Origin: a phage
Sequence record: PZ445488.1
DNA: 64,000 nucleotides
Direction: 5' to 3' (one strand)
Each line of letters opens with the position of its first letter. Positions within the stretch are counted from its first letter, which is position 1. The notes under the pieces are model-generated. The model did not search any database, was not told the DNA's origin, and saw only the letters and a program-made list of their open reading frames with translations. The position numbers were made by a program, and so were the translations under genes. Below are positions 25,182-36,059 of the stretch, piece by piece.

Positions 25182-25187
25182 GAAAAA

Positions 25188-25204
25188 GGGAGACGTTGTC
25201 TCCC
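25188..25204. terminator. bidirectional terminator hairpin GGGAGAC-GTTG-TCTCCC
   Basis: perfect 7-bp stem flanked by AAAAA and TTT between convergent gene 54 (+) and the alt-downstream ORF (-). Confidence 0.7.
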
Positions 25205-25213
25205 TTTAGGGGT

Positions 25214-25507
25214 TTATTTACGGAATGAAAGGAATGCTGGTGCTCGGAATGGAGTATCATCTTTAGAGTATTTAACTAATACGACCATTGGTACCTCTGT
25301 TTCTAAATGACCTGTCACTACACCGATAAAAATTTGATCAGTGTGCTCAGGGTCACGAAAGTTTTTAAGAGGTTCCATAGCAATATGGAATGCACCTGGG
25401 AATACTCGATTCAATTCGTCAATCACAGCTTCGTTAAAAACATCATCCGCTGGGATAACATCTTCAACTACTAGTTCTTGACCATTAAAGCGAAGCATAG
25501 ATTTCAT
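25214..25507 (-). CDS. hypothetical protein downstream of alt (T4 alt.-1 region)
   Basis: 97-aa product from the internal ATG preceded by SD AGGAAA; the 121-aa track ORF has a leader-like N-terminal extension; early promoter upstream. Confidence 0.5.
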   Translation of the reverse strand: MKSMLRFNGQELVVEDVIPADDVFNEAVIDELNRVFPGAFHIAMEPLKNFRDPEHTDQIFIGVVTGHLETEVPMVVLVKYSKDDTPFRAPAFLSFRK

Positions 25508-25565: not shown

Positions 25566-27653
25566 CTATCCTTGAACAAATTTAAACGGAATCGATTCTA
25601 AATCCATTAAAGATGCTAACAATTTCAAACCTTTAGGTGCACTAGTTTTTTCTACAAATGAAGAGAATGATACCGGCTCATCTGATTCGATTTCACCCGT
25701 CATAGCAACCACCTCGCCTGTTTCCATGAGAACATCACCATCGTAAATGACAGCTTCGTCCAACTGGTCCGAGGACATGACTTCAGCTTGAATAAATTTA
25801 AGGTTGGATTCTAAACCTGCACCAGTGTCAGATGACGCGTCTGTAATTTTATTTATCTGCAAGAGAATGCCTCTAGGCAAAATAATTTCTTGCTCATTAG
25901 GGTGATTACTCAACTGTCCTGGATAAATCACGTTAACTTTATGGGCGCCGTCAATAGCCCATCCAACGTTAACACGGATTTGTTCTGGTGCATGCATAGC
26001 TGTTCTTACTTGACTAGGAGAAATAGTAACACCTTCGTCATTATTGTCAATGTTAAGCTCTTTGCGAACTTCTTCAGGAGCAAGTCCAAGGGCAACGTTC
26101 TCTTTAAACCCGCCGAAAATAATAGGAGCTAGTGAAGTAGAAACATAGTTTCTGAAGTAGAATACCTTATTTTTAACCATTGCTTCGTAAATAGGCATTC
26201 TGATAGACTGAGCTCTATACAACGTTAATCCTTCAGGTAAACGGTCTCCATTTAAAAACGCCGAATCAAGACCATCAATAGCGCGTTTAACTTCATCTTC
26301 ATCTGCAACATCATAAAAATCCGGTTTATAACGTCCTAACAACATATTATTGATATCAGTATATGCAGAAGAGGCATATTCACGAATAGCTCGTTTTTCA
26401 GCAACAGAGTATTGTTTAGGGTCCCGATTCATTGTTATATTAAAGGTGCCTCTAGCCGATTCTCGTGCATAAGTATACATCACATTAGACAAGAACGCTG
26501 ATTTACGTTGTTTCCAAGTTTTTTCAGATACTTCAGCTAAAACGTCGTCAGCCAGTTGGAAATTATCTCGTCTAAAATCTTCAAACCATTCGTCTCTAAT
26601 AGAGTCTGCAATTTCGTTTGCAGCTTCAACAAAAGCAGCTAATGCTTTAACAGATGTTGTTTTTTCAGTTTTAATTTTCTTAGCAAACTTTTCTAAAGTC
26701 GGCTTAATAACACTACCATAAGAAACTTCATCAGCAAATCTAAAGGATTCATCAATACGATTATAAATCTTATTTTCGATATCAGCAACTAAAGTGCCTT
26801 TTGCTGTAGACGATGCTTGGGCTAGTACGATTTCATATGCTTCAGGAAGTAATTCAGCTGTAGCTGGGCCACTAACTTCTTTAGCAGAATTTTCGTATTT
26901 CTGGAATAACTCGCCTTCTTGGCGGTCAGCTTCTAAAGATTGACTTGCTGCAATAGCGCGACGAGAAATTTTAGTACGAGCAATAACAGGCTTATCTTTA
27001 CGTTTTTCTTCTACAGCAGCAATAGAACCGGCTATAGCTGTTTCTTTGGTGACTTTTTCGCCAGTCTTTTTACTCACATAAACTTCACCAACATCAGAAT
27101 CTACTTTCGTGTACAACTCTGTGTTAATGTTAGGGATGCCTTTAATATCTTCAATGTTGGCATTTTTACGAACCATCATCACATATGTGTGTTTACCTGT
27201 GAATTGATACATTGCAGACAATACTTTAAAACGACCACCAGTTTTAGTAGAAACTAAACGAGCAAGAAGAGTTTGAAGTTGTTGTCCACGTCCTTTCAAT
27301 TTCTTGGTAGGGAATCGGAACAAAACTGCATCCATACGAAGAGCTTTAACCTGTTCATACACTGTATTGAAAATGGTGTTGATTGCATCAATAGGAGCAG
27401 GACCAAGACCATTTTTCAATTCAGCGAGATTACCCTTTTCAGATAGACTCATAATAACAACATGAGCGTATTTGTCGCCAAGTTTAACTTGTTTTACAGC
27501 ATCACCTTCGGAAAGGTAAGAGAATAAGCGAACTACGATGTTTGTATCGATATCACCAATTTTCCAGACTTGTGGAACTTTAGCTTTAGGGTTCAAATTG
27601 ACGACAGGAAGACTGCCTTCAGATTCAAACACTTCATTTAATTGTTCAGACAT
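25566..27653 (-). CDS. alt: Alt-like ADP-ribosyltransferase
   Basis: 695-aa ORF at the T4 alt position between gene 54 and gene 30; carries an R-S-E-class ART signature (STS triad in NYVSTSL, EQE near the C-terminus). Confidence 0.85.
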   Translation of the reverse strand: MSEQLNEVFESEGSLPVVNLNPKAKVPQVWKIGDIDTNIVVRLFSYLSEGDAVKQVKLGDKYAHVVIMSLSEKGNLAELKNGLGPAPIDAINTIFNTVYEQVKALRMDAVLFRFPTKKLKGRGQQLQTLLARLVSTKTGGRFKVLSAMYQFTGKHTYVMMVRKNANIEDIKGIPNINTELYTKVDSDVGEVYVSKKTGEKVTKETAIAGSIAAVEEKRKDKPVIARTKISRRAIAASQSLEADRQEGELFQKYENSAKEVSGPATAELLPEAYEIVLAQASSTAKGTLVADIENKIYNRIDESFRFADEVSYGSVIKPTLEKFAKKIKTEKTTSVKALAAFVEAANEIADSIRDEWFEDFRRDNFQLADDVLAEVSEKTWKQRKSAFLSNVMYTYARESARGTFNITMNRDPKQYSVAEKRAIREYASSAYTDINNMLLGRYKPDFYDVADEDEVKRAIDGLDSAFLNGDRLPEGLTLYRAQSIRMPIYEAMVKNKVFYFRNYVSTSLAPIIFGGFKENVALGLAPEEVRKELNIDNNDEGVTISPSQVRTAMHAPEQIRVNVGWAIDGAHKVNVIYPGQLSNHPNEQEIILPRGILLQINKITDASSDTGAGLESNLKFIQAEVMSSDQLDEAVIYDGDVLMETGEVVAMTGEIESDEPVSFSSFVEKTSAPKGLKLLASLMDLESIPFKFVQG

Positions 27654-27708
27654 AGTGTTTTCCTTTTAGTAATAATTTATATTTATGCCAAAAAGAGCCC
27701 GAAGGCTC

Positions 27709-27897
27709 TTAATCCACAATCAGGAGCAAAGTACGATAAACTTCAAAATTAGGGCCTTTTTCGTACTTATCAAAATTGTCCATAAAAATATTATAGGAAT
27801 CGTTATTAGGAAAATCTAATACAATTTGGGAACAAGAGGTGGAAACATCACCACCATCTTTATTAGCGACAACTACTGTTTCTAAATAAGCTTTCAT
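27709..27897 (-). CDS. hypothetical protein, translationally coupled to DNA ligase
   Basis: 62-aa ORF whose ATG overlaps the ligase stop (TAATG); hairpin AGAGCC-CGAA-GGCTCT lies just downstream. Confidence 0.4.
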   Translation of the reverse strand: MKAYLETVVVANKDGGDVSTSCSQIVLDFPNNDSYNIFMDNFDKYEKGPNFEVYRTLLLIVD

Positions 27898-29390
27898 TAT
27901 AAACCTGTCTGGGACCACGGTCCAAATACGTCTTCAAATGAATCCGCTTCTGTTTTATCAAAACGGAACCCTTTAATAATTGGAAGGAAAATACCTACAG
28001 TACCTTCACGGCCTTTAGAATGAACCCAACCATTACATTCGCAATCAGCAATACGTCCAATCAATTTACCTTCACGAGCTTCAGCCATTAATCGTTCACG
28101 GTCTAAATCATGACGCTCATCTAAAGGAATAAGAACCTTTATACCATCAACTGTTTTATGAGTTGTATCTTTAAACCCTGAACCACAATCGGTTGTAATA
28201 CGACGACAACGTGATACAAGTTCGACACCACCTAATTTGTTAGGGTCTTTAGAGTGTTCATAGTATCCTACAACTTCTAAAGCGATATCAATAACTTCTT
28301 TAAATTTAATTAGGTTCTTAGAGCGTTTGTTTTCCCAATATGAATCACGGTTTTTAAGGATAATACCTTCAAGACCTTGGTCAACATATTTTTTATAAAC
28401 CACTTTAGCTTCGTCAAGATTACGAACTAACTGATTTTCAATTGGCTCAATTCGATTAAAGCCTTCAGCCATATTTTCAAGAGCAGCAAAACGAACATCG
28501 TATTTCTGACCTTTAATTTTGCCATCAGAATAGACTTCATCTAAAGGAACATAGTCCCAGGCTTGAAGAACCATACCTTCCGCTTCTTTAGGAGAAATAG
28601 TCCCTTGAAGAGATTTATTTGCTAAACCGTTTGAAGTGCTACGGTCTGCAACTTGTACTTCTTCGGATTCTTCATTATCGCCAAATAAGAACGACAGGTC
28701 ATTTCCTGAGCTCACAGCCTTTTTAATATCAAATGAATGATAAACTAATTCACCGTCGATTAAAACCCCATTAGGGTGTCTTTCACGGGCTTCTTTAGTC
28801 ATTTCCATTAGTTCATTTGCTAATAGGGTAAGACCATGGTATTCATTACCAGCACGAGAAAAGAATTGAACACCGTCATCACGAACTTCAGCGAAACAAC
28901 GAGCACCATCTGCTTTTAATTGAGCAAATGCAGGCCATTTAATATTTTTAGTAATCAATTTCTCGTCATATGCAGATGCTAACATCTGCGGTTGCAATTG
29001 AATAAGTCCAGGCCATACCTTATTCGCGATAGACACTGAAGCACCTACTTCAAGGTCTCGCATCATTACACGACGTAGTACTTCTACATCATCAGGTTTA
29101 CCGTCAGCGATATAACCCATGAGCTCTTTAATTGCTGCATTACCAGTGAGTTTACGAGTGGCCAATGTGAACTCAATAAAATCCAACATGTCATCTAATT
29201 CAAGAAGGCCGTACGCTTGAGACCTTTCACCTGGTCCCGGCCATTTCTTAATATAATACTGAATGCCACGTGCATACGTTAAACGATATACACGTTCAAG
29301 TAATTTGTTGTCCTTATTTTTCTTAAGGATTTCCTGTTTTGTTTTAGTAGAACCGATCGCAGCTATTTGGTTTAAAATATCTAAAATCAT
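27897..29390 (-). CDS. 30: ATP-dependent DNA ligase (gp30)
   Basis: 497-aa ORF; matches T4 DNA ligase as recalled; adenylation motif KADGARC present. Confidence 0.95.
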   Translation of the reverse strand: MILDILNQIAAIGSTKTKQEILKKNKDNKLLERVYRLTYARGIQYYIKKWPGPGERSQAYGLLELDDMLDFIEFTLATRKLTGNAAIKELMGYIADGKPDDVEVLRRVMMRDLEVGASVSIANKVWPGLIQLQPQMLASAYDEKLITKNIKWPAFAQLKADGARCFAEVRDDGVQFFSRAGNEYHGLTLLANELMEMTKEARERHPNGVLIDGELVYHSFDIKKAVSSGNDLSFLFGDNEESEEVQVADRSTSNGLANKSLQGTISPKEAEGMVLQAWDYVPLDEVYSDGKIKGQKYDVRFAALENMAEGFNRIEPIENQLVRNLDEAKVVYKKYVDQGLEGIILKNRDSYWENKRSKNLIKFKEVIDIALEVVGYYEHSKDPNKLGGVELVSRCRRITTDCGSGFKDTTHKTVDGIKVLIPLDERHDLDRERLMAEAREGKLIGRIADCECNGWVHSKGREGTVGIFLPIIKGFRFDKTEADSFEDVFGPWSQTGL

Positions 29391-29656
29391 TTGATATCCT
29401 CGATTTTGGTTACGGTTCTATTATAAGCCACTTCATCTAGAAGCGATTTCAGCGTTTTCTGATAAGTGGTAATCCATTTACCGAGTCCTTCAACGTAATA
29501 TTCTGAAATGTAGATGAACCCTTGTTCAACACACTCTTTAAATATTTCTGCGTCTTTTACTGAACGAAACACTGGCCAGTCTCGAAAGAACATGTTAACG
29601 TGACCGTAGTCACGCGTTGTGTTTTTGCCATCTGTAATATCATGAACTACAAACAT
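29387..29656 (-). CDS. hypothetical protein (T4 30.1 position)
   Basis: 89-aa ORF immediately upstream of the ligase gene with ATGA overlap. Confidence 0.5.
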   Translation of the reverse strand: MFVVHDITDGKNTTRDYGHVNMFFRDWPVFRSVKDAEIFKECVEQGFIYISEYYVEGLGKWITTYQKTLKSLLDEVAYNRTVTKIEDIK

Positions 29657-29665
29657 AATTAACCC

Positions 29666-30490
29666 TTAACAATTTATAGACCAAGTCCATTTAGACGAAT
29701 CTAAAGGAAAGTTTTGAATCGTCCACCATGGCTGCATATCAGTTGGTCCTGGAGTTCGCCAGGTATATGGAGTACGTGTTGTCGAGGGGCTGCCAATTTG
29801 ATTAGGCCATGCACCTGGGCTTGTTGCACCGGATTCTTTAAGCAAATCCGCCAATCGTTTTAAAAGGTCTTCACGATCTGAATCTGAATTATGCTCTGGC
29901 GGAACCAATCGAGATTCAATATCATCCCACGTGTGTACACGTTGTGCAGTGCGAGGAATATCATCACGTTCACCACGAGCCAACCAATAAATTGGTACAT
30001 TAAGAATTTCTGCCGCATGGTCGCAGTGATGAGCTAAATCGTCAACATAACAAATCACGTTATATTTTGTTTTAGCTAGTTCGAATAATTGTTCTTTTGA
30101 AGAATCATGACCACACATCATTACTTCAGAGAAAGCGCCTGGGAACAAAGCGTTCAAATTAAATTGTCTATTCAATCGAGCATCAATTGAATCACCTAGC
30201 GCCGTCACGGCTACAAAATTATAGTCTTCTTTTAGTTTATTGATAACTCGAAGAGCATCTGAATAAGGCGCTAAGTAACGAATAAAATCAGAGCTATTAT
30301 ATTTTTCTATTAATTGTTTACCAAGGTTATCGTCGGTATTGAACAGTTTACCAGGAGAAATAAATTTTTCGTCCTGAATCATTTTTAAAATATGTTCTAA
30401 TGGAAGATTATATTTTTGGGCAAAATAAGGAAGTCCAGATTGCCAACTTAAACATACACCATCAATATCAGTCAAAATAGTAGGCTTCAT
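29666..30490 (-). CDS. HAD-superfamily hydrolase-like protein (T4 30.2 position)
   Basis: 274-aa ORF; N-terminus ILTDIDGVCLSW carries the HAD motif I (DxDGV) typical of 5'(3')-nucleotidase-like phosphatases; C-terminal about 70 aa are W/P-rich low complexity. Confidence 0.6.
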   Translation of the reverse strand: MKPTILTDIDGVCLSWQSGLPYFAQKYNLPLEHILKMIQDEKFISPGKLFNTDDNLGKQLIEKYNSSDFIRYLAPYSDALRVINKLKEDYNFVAVTALGDSIDARLNRQFNLNALFPGAFSEVMMCGHDSSKEQLFELAKTKYNVICYVDDLAHHCDHAAEILNVPIYWLARGERDDIPRTAQRVHTWDDIESRLVPPEHNSDSDREDLLKRLADLLKESGATSPGAWPNQIGSPSTTRTPYTWRTPGPTDMQPWWTIQNFPLDSSKWTWSINC

Positions 30491-30954
30491 AAAGAGTCTC
30501 TTAATAGGTTTAACACATCAATAAATTCAGCTTCAGTTAGTATTGTATCATCTTTTGTTAGGTGGCTAGCCATGCTGTGCTTCAAAATTTTTCCTTTAGA
30601 GGCTTGTAAGGCATCACGAAACCCCTTATTTTGGATCGCGGCTTCAAAATATGCATTTGTGTATAATTCTTTCCACGCTTCAGAGTATCTTGAAAATGGA
30701 ACTCCTAACCAGAAGAGAGTCCCACGGTCCTGAGCTCTTGCATAAGACCTTCCAGCTTGCTGTGCAGCCAATCCAGACAACCCAAATATACGTCTTTGCT
30801 GTTCAACATTTTTCACCTTACATCCTTGGAGAAATCCTTCAAGACCTCCGAATTGAATACCATCCATAACAAAAGGCCATTGAGCAAAGTTACTTAATGC
30901 ACATGACGGCCACTTGAAATTACTTCTAATCTCTAACTCAGGCATCTTTAACAC
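30487..30954 (-). CDS. YbiA/NADAR (DUF1768)-like protein (T4 30.3 position)
   Basis: 155-aa ORF; the segment SNFAQWPFVMDGIQFGGLEGFLQGCKV matches the YbiA-family core (SNFA-WP...DG...E-Y-Q--K) as recalled. Confidence 0.6.
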   Translation of the reverse strand: MLKMPELEIRSNFKWPSCALSNFAQWPFVMDGIQFGGLEGFLQGCKVKNVEQQRRIFGLSGLAAQQAGRSYARAQDRGTLFWLGVPFSRYSEAWKELYTNAYFEAAIQNKGFRDALQASKGKILKHSMASHLTKDDTILTEAEFIDVLNLLRDSL

Positions 30955-31150
30955 TTATAATTTCAACATCAGCCCAATGACCGTAACTAGGCAGACGGTC
31001 TTCAATAGATAAACCACCGTCATTTTTAAGCATTTTAATTGTCTTGATAAACGGTTCATCCTGTGGATGAATAGGCGAGCAGTCAGTCACACGATAAGTA
31101 ACTTCGACCATTTCTGTACCAAACAATTTCTGGATTAGTTTATTCAACAT
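30938..31150 (-). CDS. hypothetical protein
   Basis: 70-aa ORF in the tightly packed minus-strand early unit, overlapping neighbours by a few nt. Confidence 0.4.
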   Translation of the reverse strand: MLNKLIQKLFGTEMVEVTYRVTDCSPIHPQDEPFIKTIKMLKNDGGLSIEDRLPSYGHWADVEIISVKDA

Positions 31151-31391: not shown

Positions 31392-32006
31392 CTACTTAAT
31401 GAAATTAATTTCTACAGGATGAACAACAGGTTGAGCAGTGATATATTGAGTAATCGCTTTCATGACCAAAGCTTCAGAACCAGGATTTTTCTCAACGAAT
31501 TCACGTGCTCGGTTATGAGCTTCGAGTTCACTCAATAAACCGGAACGCTGGCATCCACGGTCTTGAGTACCCTGTTCAGATAAAAAGACGACGATGTATT
31601 TTTCATCGTCATAAGGTTTAGACGGTTGAGCAAATGTTCCTTTACTTCCGAAAGGAGAGTTATGACGCCACATATCGCCATGAGGAGTTTCAACCTTCGT
31701 ATATTCGTGCGGGCCATTTTTCTTAATTTCTTGATGTGGAACTTCATAGACCTTAGGGTTAGGACATTCAATAAAATGCTCATCTAAATCAGTCGAGAAT
31801 ATTAAAGTAAAACAATTACTGAATTTACCAACACCTGCCTGATAAATTTTACCTTCAGAAGTTCTAATTTCACAAACCGAGCCAGCATCAGTAACTTCTA
31901 AAACTTCAAAAGGCTCGATAAGGTCATATGAGAACATGTTTTTAAGGCGTGGAGTAATATCCCCATTTTTAAAATTCATTTTATAAAAAGTATTAACTTT
32001 AAACAT
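31392..32006 (-). CDS. hypothetical protein
   Basis: 204-aa ORF with phage-like codon usage in the 30.x interval. Confidence 0.55.
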   Translation of the reverse strand: MFKVNTFYKMNFKNGDITPRLKNMFSYDLIEPFEVLEVTDAGSVCEIRTSEGKIYQAGVGKFSNCFTLIFSTDLDEHFIECPNPKVYEVPHQEIKKNGPHEYTKVETPHGDMWRHNSPFGSKGTFAQPSKPYDDEKYIVVFLSEQGTQDRGCQRSGLLSELEAHNRAREFVEKNPGSEALVMKAITQYITAQPVVHPVEINFIK

Positions 32007-34496: not shown

Positions 34497-35067
34497 AAAA
34501 GTTTCGGATTTGTTCCCAATTCAGAGAACGAAGATTATTACGAGAGTACTGAATTACTTCAATACCAGCTTGTTTTAGAATATCTGCCCAATTTTCAGGA
34601 GATCGGTCGTATAATTCTGCGTATACGACCTTTTTAATACCTGACTGCGTAATAGCTTTAGTACAATCAGGACATGGAGAAAGCGTCGTATATAACGTAG
34701 CACCTTCAATAGAATTACCTTTACGAGCGGCAAACAAAATTGCATTCAATTCTGCATGGATTTCATTATTAGCAGACCATGCACTATGAGCAGCTCGATG
34801 TTCTTTGGCTAAAACAAAATTATCTACCCGTCCAAATGCTGTAGTGCCTTCTTTATGTCCAGCAACGATGACTGGGATTGGTTTATTCTTCAACCAACCA
34901 TTTTCAGATGCATGTTCGCAACAGTTAACGCCACCTGCAGGTGAACCGTTATATCCAGTAGAGATAATGCGTCCATCTTTTTCAATGACGGCACCAACTT
35001 TCCATGAACAACATTTTGATTCTTGAGAAATCAGATATGCAATCTGAAGGTATGTGCTAGCTTTCAT
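34486..35067 (-). CDS. cd: dCMP deaminase (Cd)
   Basis: 193-aa ORF; matches T4 Cd (193 aa) as recalled; zinc-binding motifs HAE and PCxxC present. Confidence 0.94.
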   Translation of the reverse strand: MKASTYLQIAYLISQESKCCSWKVGAVIEKDGRIISTGYNGSPAGGVNCCEHASENGWLKNKPIPVIVAGHKEGTTAFGRVDNFVLAKEHRAAHSAWSANNEIHAELNAILFAARKGNSIEGATLYTTLSPCPDCTKAITQSGIKKVVYAELYDRSPENWADILKQAGIEVIQYSRNNLRSLNWEQIRNFCGE

Positions 35068-36059
35068 TATTGAACCTTATTAATATAAGTTAACAGCTCT
35101 TTAGTTTGTTCCCAACTGATGCACGCATCGGTAACGGAAACGCCATAGGACATATTATCAGAAATTTTTTGATTTCCTTCATGTAGGAACGATTCTATCA
35201 TAATTCCTTTGACCAAATCATTAGCTGCTAAATTTTTACCAATACCAATTTGATTGCTATAATGCCCATCAGCGTTTGCATGGCTACAGTCAACCATTAC
35301 ATAATGATTCAGACCTACTGCCCTTGCTTTGTTAGAAGCTTCTTGAATATCAGAAGAATGATAGTTCGGGCCGTTGGTCCCGCCACGCAATACGATATGC
35401 GTATTCTGATTACCTTCAGCTTCAACAATGCCTACAGTACCATCGACGTCCATACCCATATACCGATGAGGCCAGGCGGCACTATACATCGCGTCTGTAG
35501 CTACTTTAATAGAACCATTGGTTGCGTTCTTAAAGCCTACGCACATCGGTAGACCTGAAGCAATTTCACGATGTGTCTGACTTTCAGTCGTACGGGCGCC
35601 AATAGCAACCCATGAGAAAATACCAGAAAGATACTTAATCGTGAATGGGTCTAATACTTCAGTTGCTAATGGAAGTCCCATACGTAGAAGTTTACGACAC
35701 AATGTTCGTGCAACTATAAGACCGTGGTTCATATCAAAACTTCCGTCAAGATATGGATCATTTACAAGACCTTTCCAACCTACGGTAGTTCGAGGCTTTT
35801 CAAAATAAACGCGCATCACTAACAGAACATTAGGAAGACGAGTTTGAAGTTCAGCCAGACGTTTGCCGTATTCAACAGCAGCAATAGGGTCATGAATTGA
35901 ACAAGGACCTACAACAATAAGTTTGCGTGGGTCTTCACCGTTCATAATCGAATTAACTTGTTCGCGATGAGAAGCCACTTGTGATGCGTAAGCTTCCGAC
36001 AAAGGAATAATCTCAGCCAGTTCTTTTGGAGAAATAAGTTTTCCGACGACAGGTAACAT
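35067..36059 (-). CDS. 3-deoxy-D-arabino-heptulosonate 7-phosphate (DAHP) synthase, class I (AroG/AroF-like)
   Basis: 330-aa ORF with the class I-alpha DAHP synthase signature blocks LIVVGPCSIHD, VMRVYFEKPRTTVGWKGL, GARTTESQ, GFKN, VLRGG, DCSHANA, IESFLHEGNQ and TDACISW; AT-rich phage-like codon usage; ATGA overlap with cd. Confidence 0.85.
   Translation of the reverse strand: MLPVVGKLISPKELAEIIPLSEAYASQVASHREQVNSIMNGEDPRKLIVVGPCSIHDPIAAVEYGKRLAELQTRLPNVLLVMRVYFEKPRTTVGWKGLVNDPYLDGSFDMNHGLIVARTLCRKLLRMGLPLATEVLDPFTIKYLSGIFSWVAIGARTTESQTHREIASGLPMCVGFKNATNGSIKVATDAMYSAAWPHRYMGMDVDGTVGIVEAEGNQNTHIVLRGGTNGPNYHSSDIQEASNKARAVGLNHYVMVDCSHANADGHYSNQIGIGKNLAANDLVKGIMIESFLHEGNQKISDNMSYGVSVTDACISWEQTKELLTYINKVQ

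Follow-up and report, generated by a model that had tools for sequence, protein, structure and literature searches.

Guanine ADP-ribosylation by the toxin DarT1 is reversed by NADAR enzymes, and those of phages have a histidine where the third catalytic acid would stand (Schuller et al., Mol Cell 2023, PMC11543638). This phage-type histidine belongs to the last strand, at a site where cellular NADARs have Glu/Asp (PMC11125620, PMC11543638). Purified gp30.3 of phage T4 hydrolyses ADP-ribosylated guanine on DNA (Toxins 2024, PMC11125620), and the same in vitro activity of T4 gp30.3 on ADP-ribosylated guanine has been described elsewhere (PMC12945103). A phage NADAR that reverses DarT-type ADP-ribosylation of DNA constitutes an enzymatic 'orphan antitoxin' and is as such a biologically important form of counter-defence. 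Here we explore a gp30.3 homolog and its neighbours, among which are genes for an Alt-like ADP-ribosyltransferase, a DNA ligase and a HAD-family hydrolase, at positions 25566-30954 of phage sequence record PZ445488.1; the window, by which we mean the whole stretch of DNA analysed, comprises 64,000 nucleotides.

Johannesman and collaborators renamed T4 gp30.3 AdfN, for anti-DarT factor NADAR, and showed it to be necessary and sufficient for the resistance of T-even phages to DarTG1 (Nat Commun 2025, PMC11825919). In their work the T4 AdfN mutants E36A and K43A were inactive, T4 gp30.3 clustered nearest to DarG1-type NADARs, and phage RB69 was DarTG1-sensitive, a frameshift that removes the last 15 residues of its gp30.3 having rendered it non-functional. 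In uninfected E. coli AdfN gave no protection against DarT1, and the phages T5 and Bas25 gained hardly anything from it; the authors favour a preference of AdfN for hydroxymethyl-cytosine DNA, with 'another phage factor' named as the alternative that stays open (PMC11825919).

The 6.2 kb around positions 25566-30954 are 100% identical to Escherichia phage CEV1 (Tequatrovirus) and show 97-98% identity to many Tequatroviruses that infect E. coli O157. The four minus-strand open reading frames (ORFs) listed in an initial annotation, made from the sequence alone, were all recovered (25566-27653, 27897-29390, 29666-30490 and 30487-30954; 695, 497, 274 and 155 aa), and these gene features are well beyond chance. 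In our assessment the stretch is very probably the conserved T4-type alt.-3/alt/alt.1/30/30.1/30.2/30.3 segment, in which the genes have separate functions rather than form a single pathway. That gp30.3 is an anti-DarT factor was already established for the T4 protein in 2023-2025, so that the CEV1 gene, an ortholog with 96% identity, teaches nothing new on adfN itself.

The gp30.3 protein of CEV1 and the NADAR superfamily

The NADAR-like ORF was initially taken to encode 155 aa, counted from a GTG at 30954. Translation likely starts at the ATG at 30945, which gives 152 aa as in T4 and overlaps the stop of 30.4 in ATGCCTGA; the expected NADAR core motif is present (SNFAQWP...DG...EGFLQGCK), and it is the length that needs correction. 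CEV1 and T4 gp30.3 are identical at 146 of the 152 positions (96%), ungapped and including the full C-terminus (...LLRDSL). All six substitutions (S2P, R11K, P89E, V120I, I125M and G128H) fall outside the invariant and near-invariant columns of an alignment of 48 gp30.3-family members. E36, K43 and H123, invariant among these 48, are all present in CEV1. The two phages further share an intact C-terminal helix, the neighbours 30.4 upstream and 30.2 downstream, and identical start/stop overlaps.

The only Pfam family that CEV1 gp30.3 matches is Phage_30_3 (PF08010, 1.9e-69); no match to Pfam NADAR (PF08719) was obtained, even at E-values up to 10, and a single-sequence search of the PDB gave zero matches. 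A profile of the 48 family members identified E. coli YbiA (2b3w) at an E-value of 8e-4, the match spanning the SNFA...E..Q..K region, and six of the members themselves match Pfam NADAR, at best with 1.5e-7. The AlphaFold2 model of CEV1 gp30.3 has a predicted local distance difference test score (pLDDT) of 93.9 and shows the C-terminal helix at residues 138-151. When this model was compared with the PDB by means of Foldseek, the top three matches were all NADARs: YbiA (2b3w; template modelling score 0.67, probability 1.00), a Phytophthora NADAR bound to ADP-ribose (8bau; 0.99) and a Geobacter DarG1-type NADAR (8bat; 0.89). Every other PDB match has a probability of at most 0.06.

By family profile, residues and predicted fold we place CEV1 gp30.3 in the NADAR superfamily, in its phage gp30.3 branch, which bears out the YbiA/NADAR-type assignment of the initial annotation. 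That annotation had proposed Pfam profile searches as a check and a placement outside the YbiA/NADAR family as a refutation. Superfamily membership was found through profile and fold, the match to PF08719 was not, and the protein is filed in PF08010 instead; since the NADAR link of gp30.3 becomes visible only by profile and fold comparison, that test would mislead if it were read literally. Four points weigh against our reading of the segment. The Foldseek E-value of gp30.3 to YbiA is modest (2.5e-4); a direct PF08719 match is lacking, so that NADAR membership comes via profile and fold; the functional data are those of the T4 ortholog, the activity of the CEV1 protein being deduced from likeness; and, given 41% identity to T4 Alt, the targets of CEV1 Alt could differ.

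If the CEV1 proteins act as their T4 orthologs do, as we infer, CEV1 AdfN would be a single-domain NADAR, made early, that cuts the ADP-ribose-guanine bond in phage DNA. It would in this way erase the replication-blocking marks that DarT1, the toxin of the host's defence system DarTG1, sets on it, with E36 and K43 as probable catalytic residues and H123 replacing the Glu/Asp of cellular NADARs. An anti-DarT role had been suggested from the sequence; the idea is correct by the published work on T4 AdfN, and the fold and residue tests of the CEV1 protein agree with it, but it is known, because it was published for the 96%-identical T4 ortholog.

As a separate observation, 30.3', an out-of-frame ORF inside T4 30.3, meets a stop codon after 34 codons in CEV1 (30582-30809, minus strand), which argues against 30.3' as a conserved gene.

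Gene order and transcription units

The minus-strand ORFs of CEV1 are collinear with T4 alt.-3, alt, alt.1, 30, 30.1, 30.2, 30.3, 30.4, 30.5, 30.7 and 30.8. The block is bordered by the baseplate genes 48/54 on the opposite strand, and rIII and gene 31 lie farther along. The following features were identified:

25185-25207: bidirectional terminator after the alt.-3 homolog (automatic terminator scan)
25214..25507, minus strand: alt.-3 homolog, DUF5498, 97 aa, directly downstream of alt (Pfam DUF5498, 3.2e-25)
25566..27653, minus strand: alt, Alt-like R-S-E mono-ADP-ribosyltransferase, 695 aa (Pfam, PHROG, motifs)
27674..27681, minus strand: late-promoter-like box TATAAATT, 21 nt 5' of the alt ATG (direct sequence reading)
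27690..27709, minus strand: intrinsic-terminator-like hairpin and T run, directly 3' of the alt.1 stop (direct reading)
27709..27897, minus strand: alt.1, 62 aa, its ATG (27897) overlapping the stop of the ligase gene in TAATG
27897..29390, minus strand: gene 30, ATP-dependent DNA ligase, 497 aa (Pfam DNA_ligase_A_M, PHROG 114)
29387..29656, minus strand: 30.1, DUF3045, 89 aa, its stop overlapping the ligase start in ATGA (Pfam DUF3045, 1.1e-26)
29666..30490, minus strand: 30.2, predicted capped HAD-superfamily phosphatase, 274 aa (motifs, predicted fold)
30487..30945, minus strand: 30.3 = adfN, predicted phage-type NADAR, 152 aa, its stop overlapping the 30.2 start in ATGA (orthology to T4 gp30.3, fold)
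30938..31150, minus strand: 30.4, 70 aa (ORF; 46% identity to T4 30.4)

From 30.4 to alt.1 the successive junctions are ATGCCTGA, ATGA, a 9-nt gap, ATGA and TAATG, and these genes look like a single polycistronic unit; 30.4 is counted in the same tight unit because its stop overlaps the adfN start. The hairpin between alt.1 and alt, (A)GAGCC-TTCG-GGCTC(T) followed by a T run, has an equivalent in T4 (AAAGGCC-TTCG-GGCCTTT) and would end the early 30.x-30-alt.1 unit. The automatic terminator scan does not list it, and our guess is that a stem of six pairs leaves a tail with only 4 T. An exact search for TATAAATA upstream of CEV1 alt gave no match; by direct reading, the TATAAATT found there is a one-mismatch variant of it. 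T4 has TATAAATA, a perfect late promoter, at the equivalent place. T4 alt is a late gene (PMC9697503), and in time-resolved omics of T4 the genes alt.1, 30, 30.1, 30.2 and 30.3 have early RNA. Judged by these signals and by analogy with T4, alt of CEV1 forms a putative separate late transcription unit.

T4 Alt is a head-packaged protein that enters the host with the injected DNA; its targets are arginines in host proteins, namely the RNA polymerase alpha subunit and MazF. In CEV1 Alt, Pfam ADPrib_exo_Tox was matched at 6e-28 over residues 413-610, approximately the extent of the catalytic domain, and PHROG 802 (Alt-like RNA polymerase ADP-ribosyltransferase) at 1.6e-261, and the motifs R480, S505-T-S507 and E587-Q-E589 confirm the Alt-like R-S-E ADP-ribosyltransferase initially recognized. 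The protein would be a late-expressed R-S-E mono-ADP-ribosyltransferase. With T4 Alt it has in common its place between the baseplate genes and the ligase, its R-S-E motifs, a similar length (695 versus 682 aa) and the upstream arrangement of terminator and late promoter; the remnants alt.-1 and alt.-2, pseudo-duplications of T4, are absent from CEV1. The two proteins are 41% identical over their full length, whereas the flanking genes reach 63-96%. Among phage records, about 150 have an Alt at least 95% identical to the CEV1 type, 10 show 60-80% identity and 1061 less than 60%. This bimodal split suggests that discrete Alt alleles are exchanged among Tequatroviruses.

The alt.-3 homolog of CEV1 shows 52.6% identity to T4 Alt.-3 and is, with its 97 aa, of wild-type length. 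Wild-type T4 Alt.-3 has 96 aa, and C-terminally extended mutants of it escape CmdTAC, a defence that ADP-ribosylates mRNA (PMC11618068); by virtue of this escape the alt neighbourhood touches a second ADP-ribosylation conflict. Separately, Aeromonas phage phiAS4 has an extra ORF of 298 aa between ligase and alt (L007, 11600-12496) with a weak ADP-ribosyltransferase signature (Pfam E-value 0.0077; tblastn to the catalytic part of Alt 5e-9), which may be a second Alt-like paralog.

The HAD-type protein gp30.2

CEV1 gp30.2 has 274 aa, begins with MKPTILTDIDGV and shows 69% identity to T4 gp30.2. Its motif I is of the DxDGV type and the full set of HAD motifs comprises D8/D10, T96, K132 and D150-D151; among 40 homologs D8, D10 and K132 never vary, and the conservation of T96, D150 and D151 is 90% or higher. 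The model shows a confident core at residues 1-195 (pLDDT above 90), Rossmann-like and interrupted behind motif I by a helical cap. These four motifs and the predicted capped fold substantiate the HAD-family hydrolase with DxDGV motif of the initial annotation. In the C-terminal tail (residues 196-274, positions 29666-29905), which is rich in Trp, Pro and Thr, pLDDT dips after about residue 195, a helix is predicted at 203-219 and disorder from about 231. Homolog lengths range from 176 to 347 aa, the tail being highly variable in both length and sequence and the HAD core conserved.

Family assignment by means of curated profiles stayed below threshold: gp30.2 scores 16 bits against the 23.8 required for HAD_2 (E-value 0.014) and 12.7 against 125.4 for TIGR01428, and has no above-threshold Pfam HAD or NT5C match. 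Its best match among PDB sequences is the deoxyribonucleotidase 2jao, at an E-value of 0.18, and identity to solved HADs is 10-19%. For PF06941 (NT5C), distant members of the gp30.2 family reach 26.4 bits against a cut-off of 24.8. Deoxyribonucleotidases are among the top fold matches without being distinctly best. The family corresponds to PHROG 420, 'unknown function'.

An exhaustive profile search, performed on representatives of clusters at 50% identity, gave 1054 relatives of gp30.2 at an E-value of at most 1e-3, all without annotation and mostly single-domain proteins of 190-220 aa. Pfam scans of the distant or longer relatives returned generic HAD (the 591-aa P0262) and weak NT5C (two distant single-domain members), and an informative partner domain was not found among them. 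Among PDB sequences the family profile had spurious matches only, to an amidase and to Bud6. Nothing useful came from scanning Alt, 30.2 and 30.3 with NCBIfam and PADLOC, and a search of the literature turned up no paper on gp30.2. A gene annotated as 'hydrolase' between 30.2 and the ligase in Aeromonas phage G2 was also considered; it has no Pfam domain and hence provides no Nudix or macrodomain link.

We conclude that gp30.2 is, as judged by predicted fold and motifs, a genuine capped HAD phosphomonoesterase, its motifs indicating catalytic competence. It appears distantly related to the 5'(3')-deoxyribonucleotidases, and its substrates would most plausibly, though no more than plausibly, be of the nucleotide monophosphate class. 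With the C1-capped type I HAD phosphatases, among which NT5C (2jao, 3bwv, 4mum) is the nearest recognizable family by sequence, it shares the DxDGV, Thr, Lys and DD motifs as well as core and cap; it differs by its extra variable tail of about 80 residues and by the low identity of 10-19% to any solved HAD. The protein would be a Mg-dependent enzyme, made from the early polycistronic unit shared with ligase and AdfN, and would most likely act on a small phosphorylated substrate of the nucleotide type, because its nearest recognizable sequence relatives are 5'(3')-deoxyribonucleotidases.

A different role follows if gp30.2 partners AdfN, either as a T-even-specific factor required for full AdfN action in infected cells or by disposing of the released ADP-ribose or ADP-ribosyl-nucleotide. 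The overlap of 30.3 stop and 30.2 start (ATGA) in both CEV1 and T4, the adjacency of 30.3 and 30.2 in Acinetobacter phage AC4 and the nearly equal taxonomic spread of the two genes (1511 versus 1442 phage records) are in line with such a partnership, as is the weakness of AdfN outside T-even infection, in uninfected cells, T5 and Bas25, for which 'another phage factor' was left open (PMC11825919). However, purified AdfN alone strips ADP-ribose from DNA in vitro (PMC11825919, PMC11125620), and the AdfN authors favour the hydroxymethyl-cytosine model (PMC11825919). The two genes also part company in distant T4-like phages, where 30.2 stays by the ligase and 30.3, in Aeromonas Ceceduovirus-type phages, lies elsewhere. 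Phages of the Aeromonas G2/Assk type have 30.2 beside the ligase and 30.3 near the genes for phosphoribosyl pyrophosphate (PRPP) synthetase and nicotinamide phosphoribosyltransferase; Aeromonas phiAS4 has the order 30.2-ligase-alt and no 30.3 within 9 kb of 30.2; within the stretches fetched, Vibrio phage VS1 has 30.2 alone, and Sinorhizobium phage phiM12 and Ralstonia phage RSP15 have 30.3 alone, with no 30.2 in the approximately 14 kb around it. Moreover, 30.2 and 30.3 are both near-core genes of Straboviridae, so that their co-occurrence is explained by ancestry. We therefore regard the partnership as improbable, and put the probability of gp30.2, the gene of which is translationally coupled to adfN, being tied to DNA de-ADP-ribosylation, be it as T-even cofactor of AdfN or in the disposal of released ADP-ribose or ADP-ribosylated nucleotides, marginally lower still.

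Linkage, substrates and neighbouring genes

Our reading of the segment as a set of separate functions has to be weighed against the view that the genes form one functional NAD/ADP-ribose module, in which the NADAR, and perhaps the HAD phosphatase, removes what the phage's own Alt leaves behind, be it products or off-target marks. We consider this very improbable and already largely refuted. All genes do lie within 5.4 kb on a single strand, T4 has the identical gene order, and 30.2, ligase and alt of phiAS4 are on one strand; however, a terminator hairpin and a late-promoter-like box stand between alt and the 30.x unit, and in T4 alt is late and 30.x early. In Acinetobacter phage AC4, 30.3, 30.2 and ligase occupy one strand while alt is convergent on the other, co-directional with the baseplate genes, and the 18 kb fetched from Klebsiella phage Kp_GWPR59 contain 30.3, 30.2 and ligase without alt. 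The record counts differ likewise. Alt was found in 1222 phage records, fewer than either 30.3 or 30.2; Klebsiella phages account for 272 records of 30.3 versus 163 of Alt; and Vibrio phages, with 55 records of 30.3 and 62 of 30.2, are absent from the ten organism names most often seen with Alt, a list whose last entry counts 16 records. The T4-type linkage of alt and the 30.x genes dissolves in distant T4-like phages.

Substrates point the same way. In tests of T4 gp30.3 and other NADARs the substrate was guanine, not thymine (PMC11125620). Activity on guanine-linked ADP-ribose, against the protein arginines that Alt modifies, leaves a cleaning of Alt products by AdfN unsupported. The ligase, for its part, uses ATP and not NAD. 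Hence neither part of the initial interpretation that had joined these genes is supported: against a cluster handling NAD/ADP-ribose stand a probably separate late alt unit, an ATP-dependent ligase and a broken linkage, the HAD protein having no shown link to ADP-ribose, and against the alternative role of the NADAR in processing by-products of the phage's own Alt stand the guanine activity of gp30.3, the arginines targeted by Alt and the apparently separate transcription of alt.

Least probable of all is a housekeeping role for the 152-aa protein, as an N-glycosidase of the YbiA type for riboflavin-pathway intermediates, instead of one in counter-defence. Although E. coli YbiA is its closest structural match and some phage annotations label homologs 'ybiA-like' or 'swarming motility YbiA-like', identity between the gp30.3 model and YbiA is only 18%, a His that never varies in the gp30.3 family replaces the Glu of YbiA-type enzymes, and T4 gp30.3, which clusters nearest to the NADARs of DarG1 type, has been shown to counter DarTG1 (PMC11825919).

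As a phage-type NADAR, gp30.3 shares with the cellular NADARs (DarG1 of G. lovleyi, 8bat; P. nicotianae, 8bau; YbiA, 2b3w) the predicted helical core and the Glu and Lys that contact ADP-ribose. It differs from them in that it has no N-terminal extension, is not paired with a DarT toxin and carries, in the last strand, a His where DarG1 has Asp and where YbiA and the stand-alone NADARs have Glu. A further difference is that T4 gp30.3 gives no DarT1 detoxification in uninfected cells. Just a few genes separate the gp30.3-type NADAR of Aeromonas phage Assk (L005, 7001-11911) from PRPP synthetase and nicotinamide phosphoribosyltransferase, the latter two belonging to NAD salvage, and it adjoins neither 30.2 nor the ligase.

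Regarding the remaining genes of the segment, the ligase matches Pfam DNA_ligase_A_M (PF01068) at 1.5e-26 and PHROG 114 at 5.3e-155 and shows 63% identity to T4 gp30; its adenylation lysine, K159 in KADG, marks it as the ATP-dependent type. The product of alt.1 shows 67% identity to that of T4 and matches Pfam Phage_blade ('Phage blade protein', PF24647) at 7.9e-30, from residue 8 of the GTG ORF onwards. For 30.7 the identity to T4 is 93%. An ORF of 204 aa at 31392-32006 (minus strand) occupies the place of T4 30.6; it belongs to PHROG 17531 and has no Pfam domain, and tblastn found nothing corresponding to it in the 30.x region of T4.

Farther along, directly beside the deoxycytidine monophosphate deaminase gene, the minus strand encodes a 3-deoxy-7-phosphoheptulonate (DAHP) synthase of 330 aa (35067-36059). 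No DAHP synthase is annotated in the corresponding stretch of T4 beside cd. The CEV1 gene scores 427.7 bits with the NCBIfam aroFGH equivalog and 5e-75 with Pfam DAHP_synth_1, has homologs in 213 phage records and may serve the shikimate pathway as an auxiliary metabolic gene.

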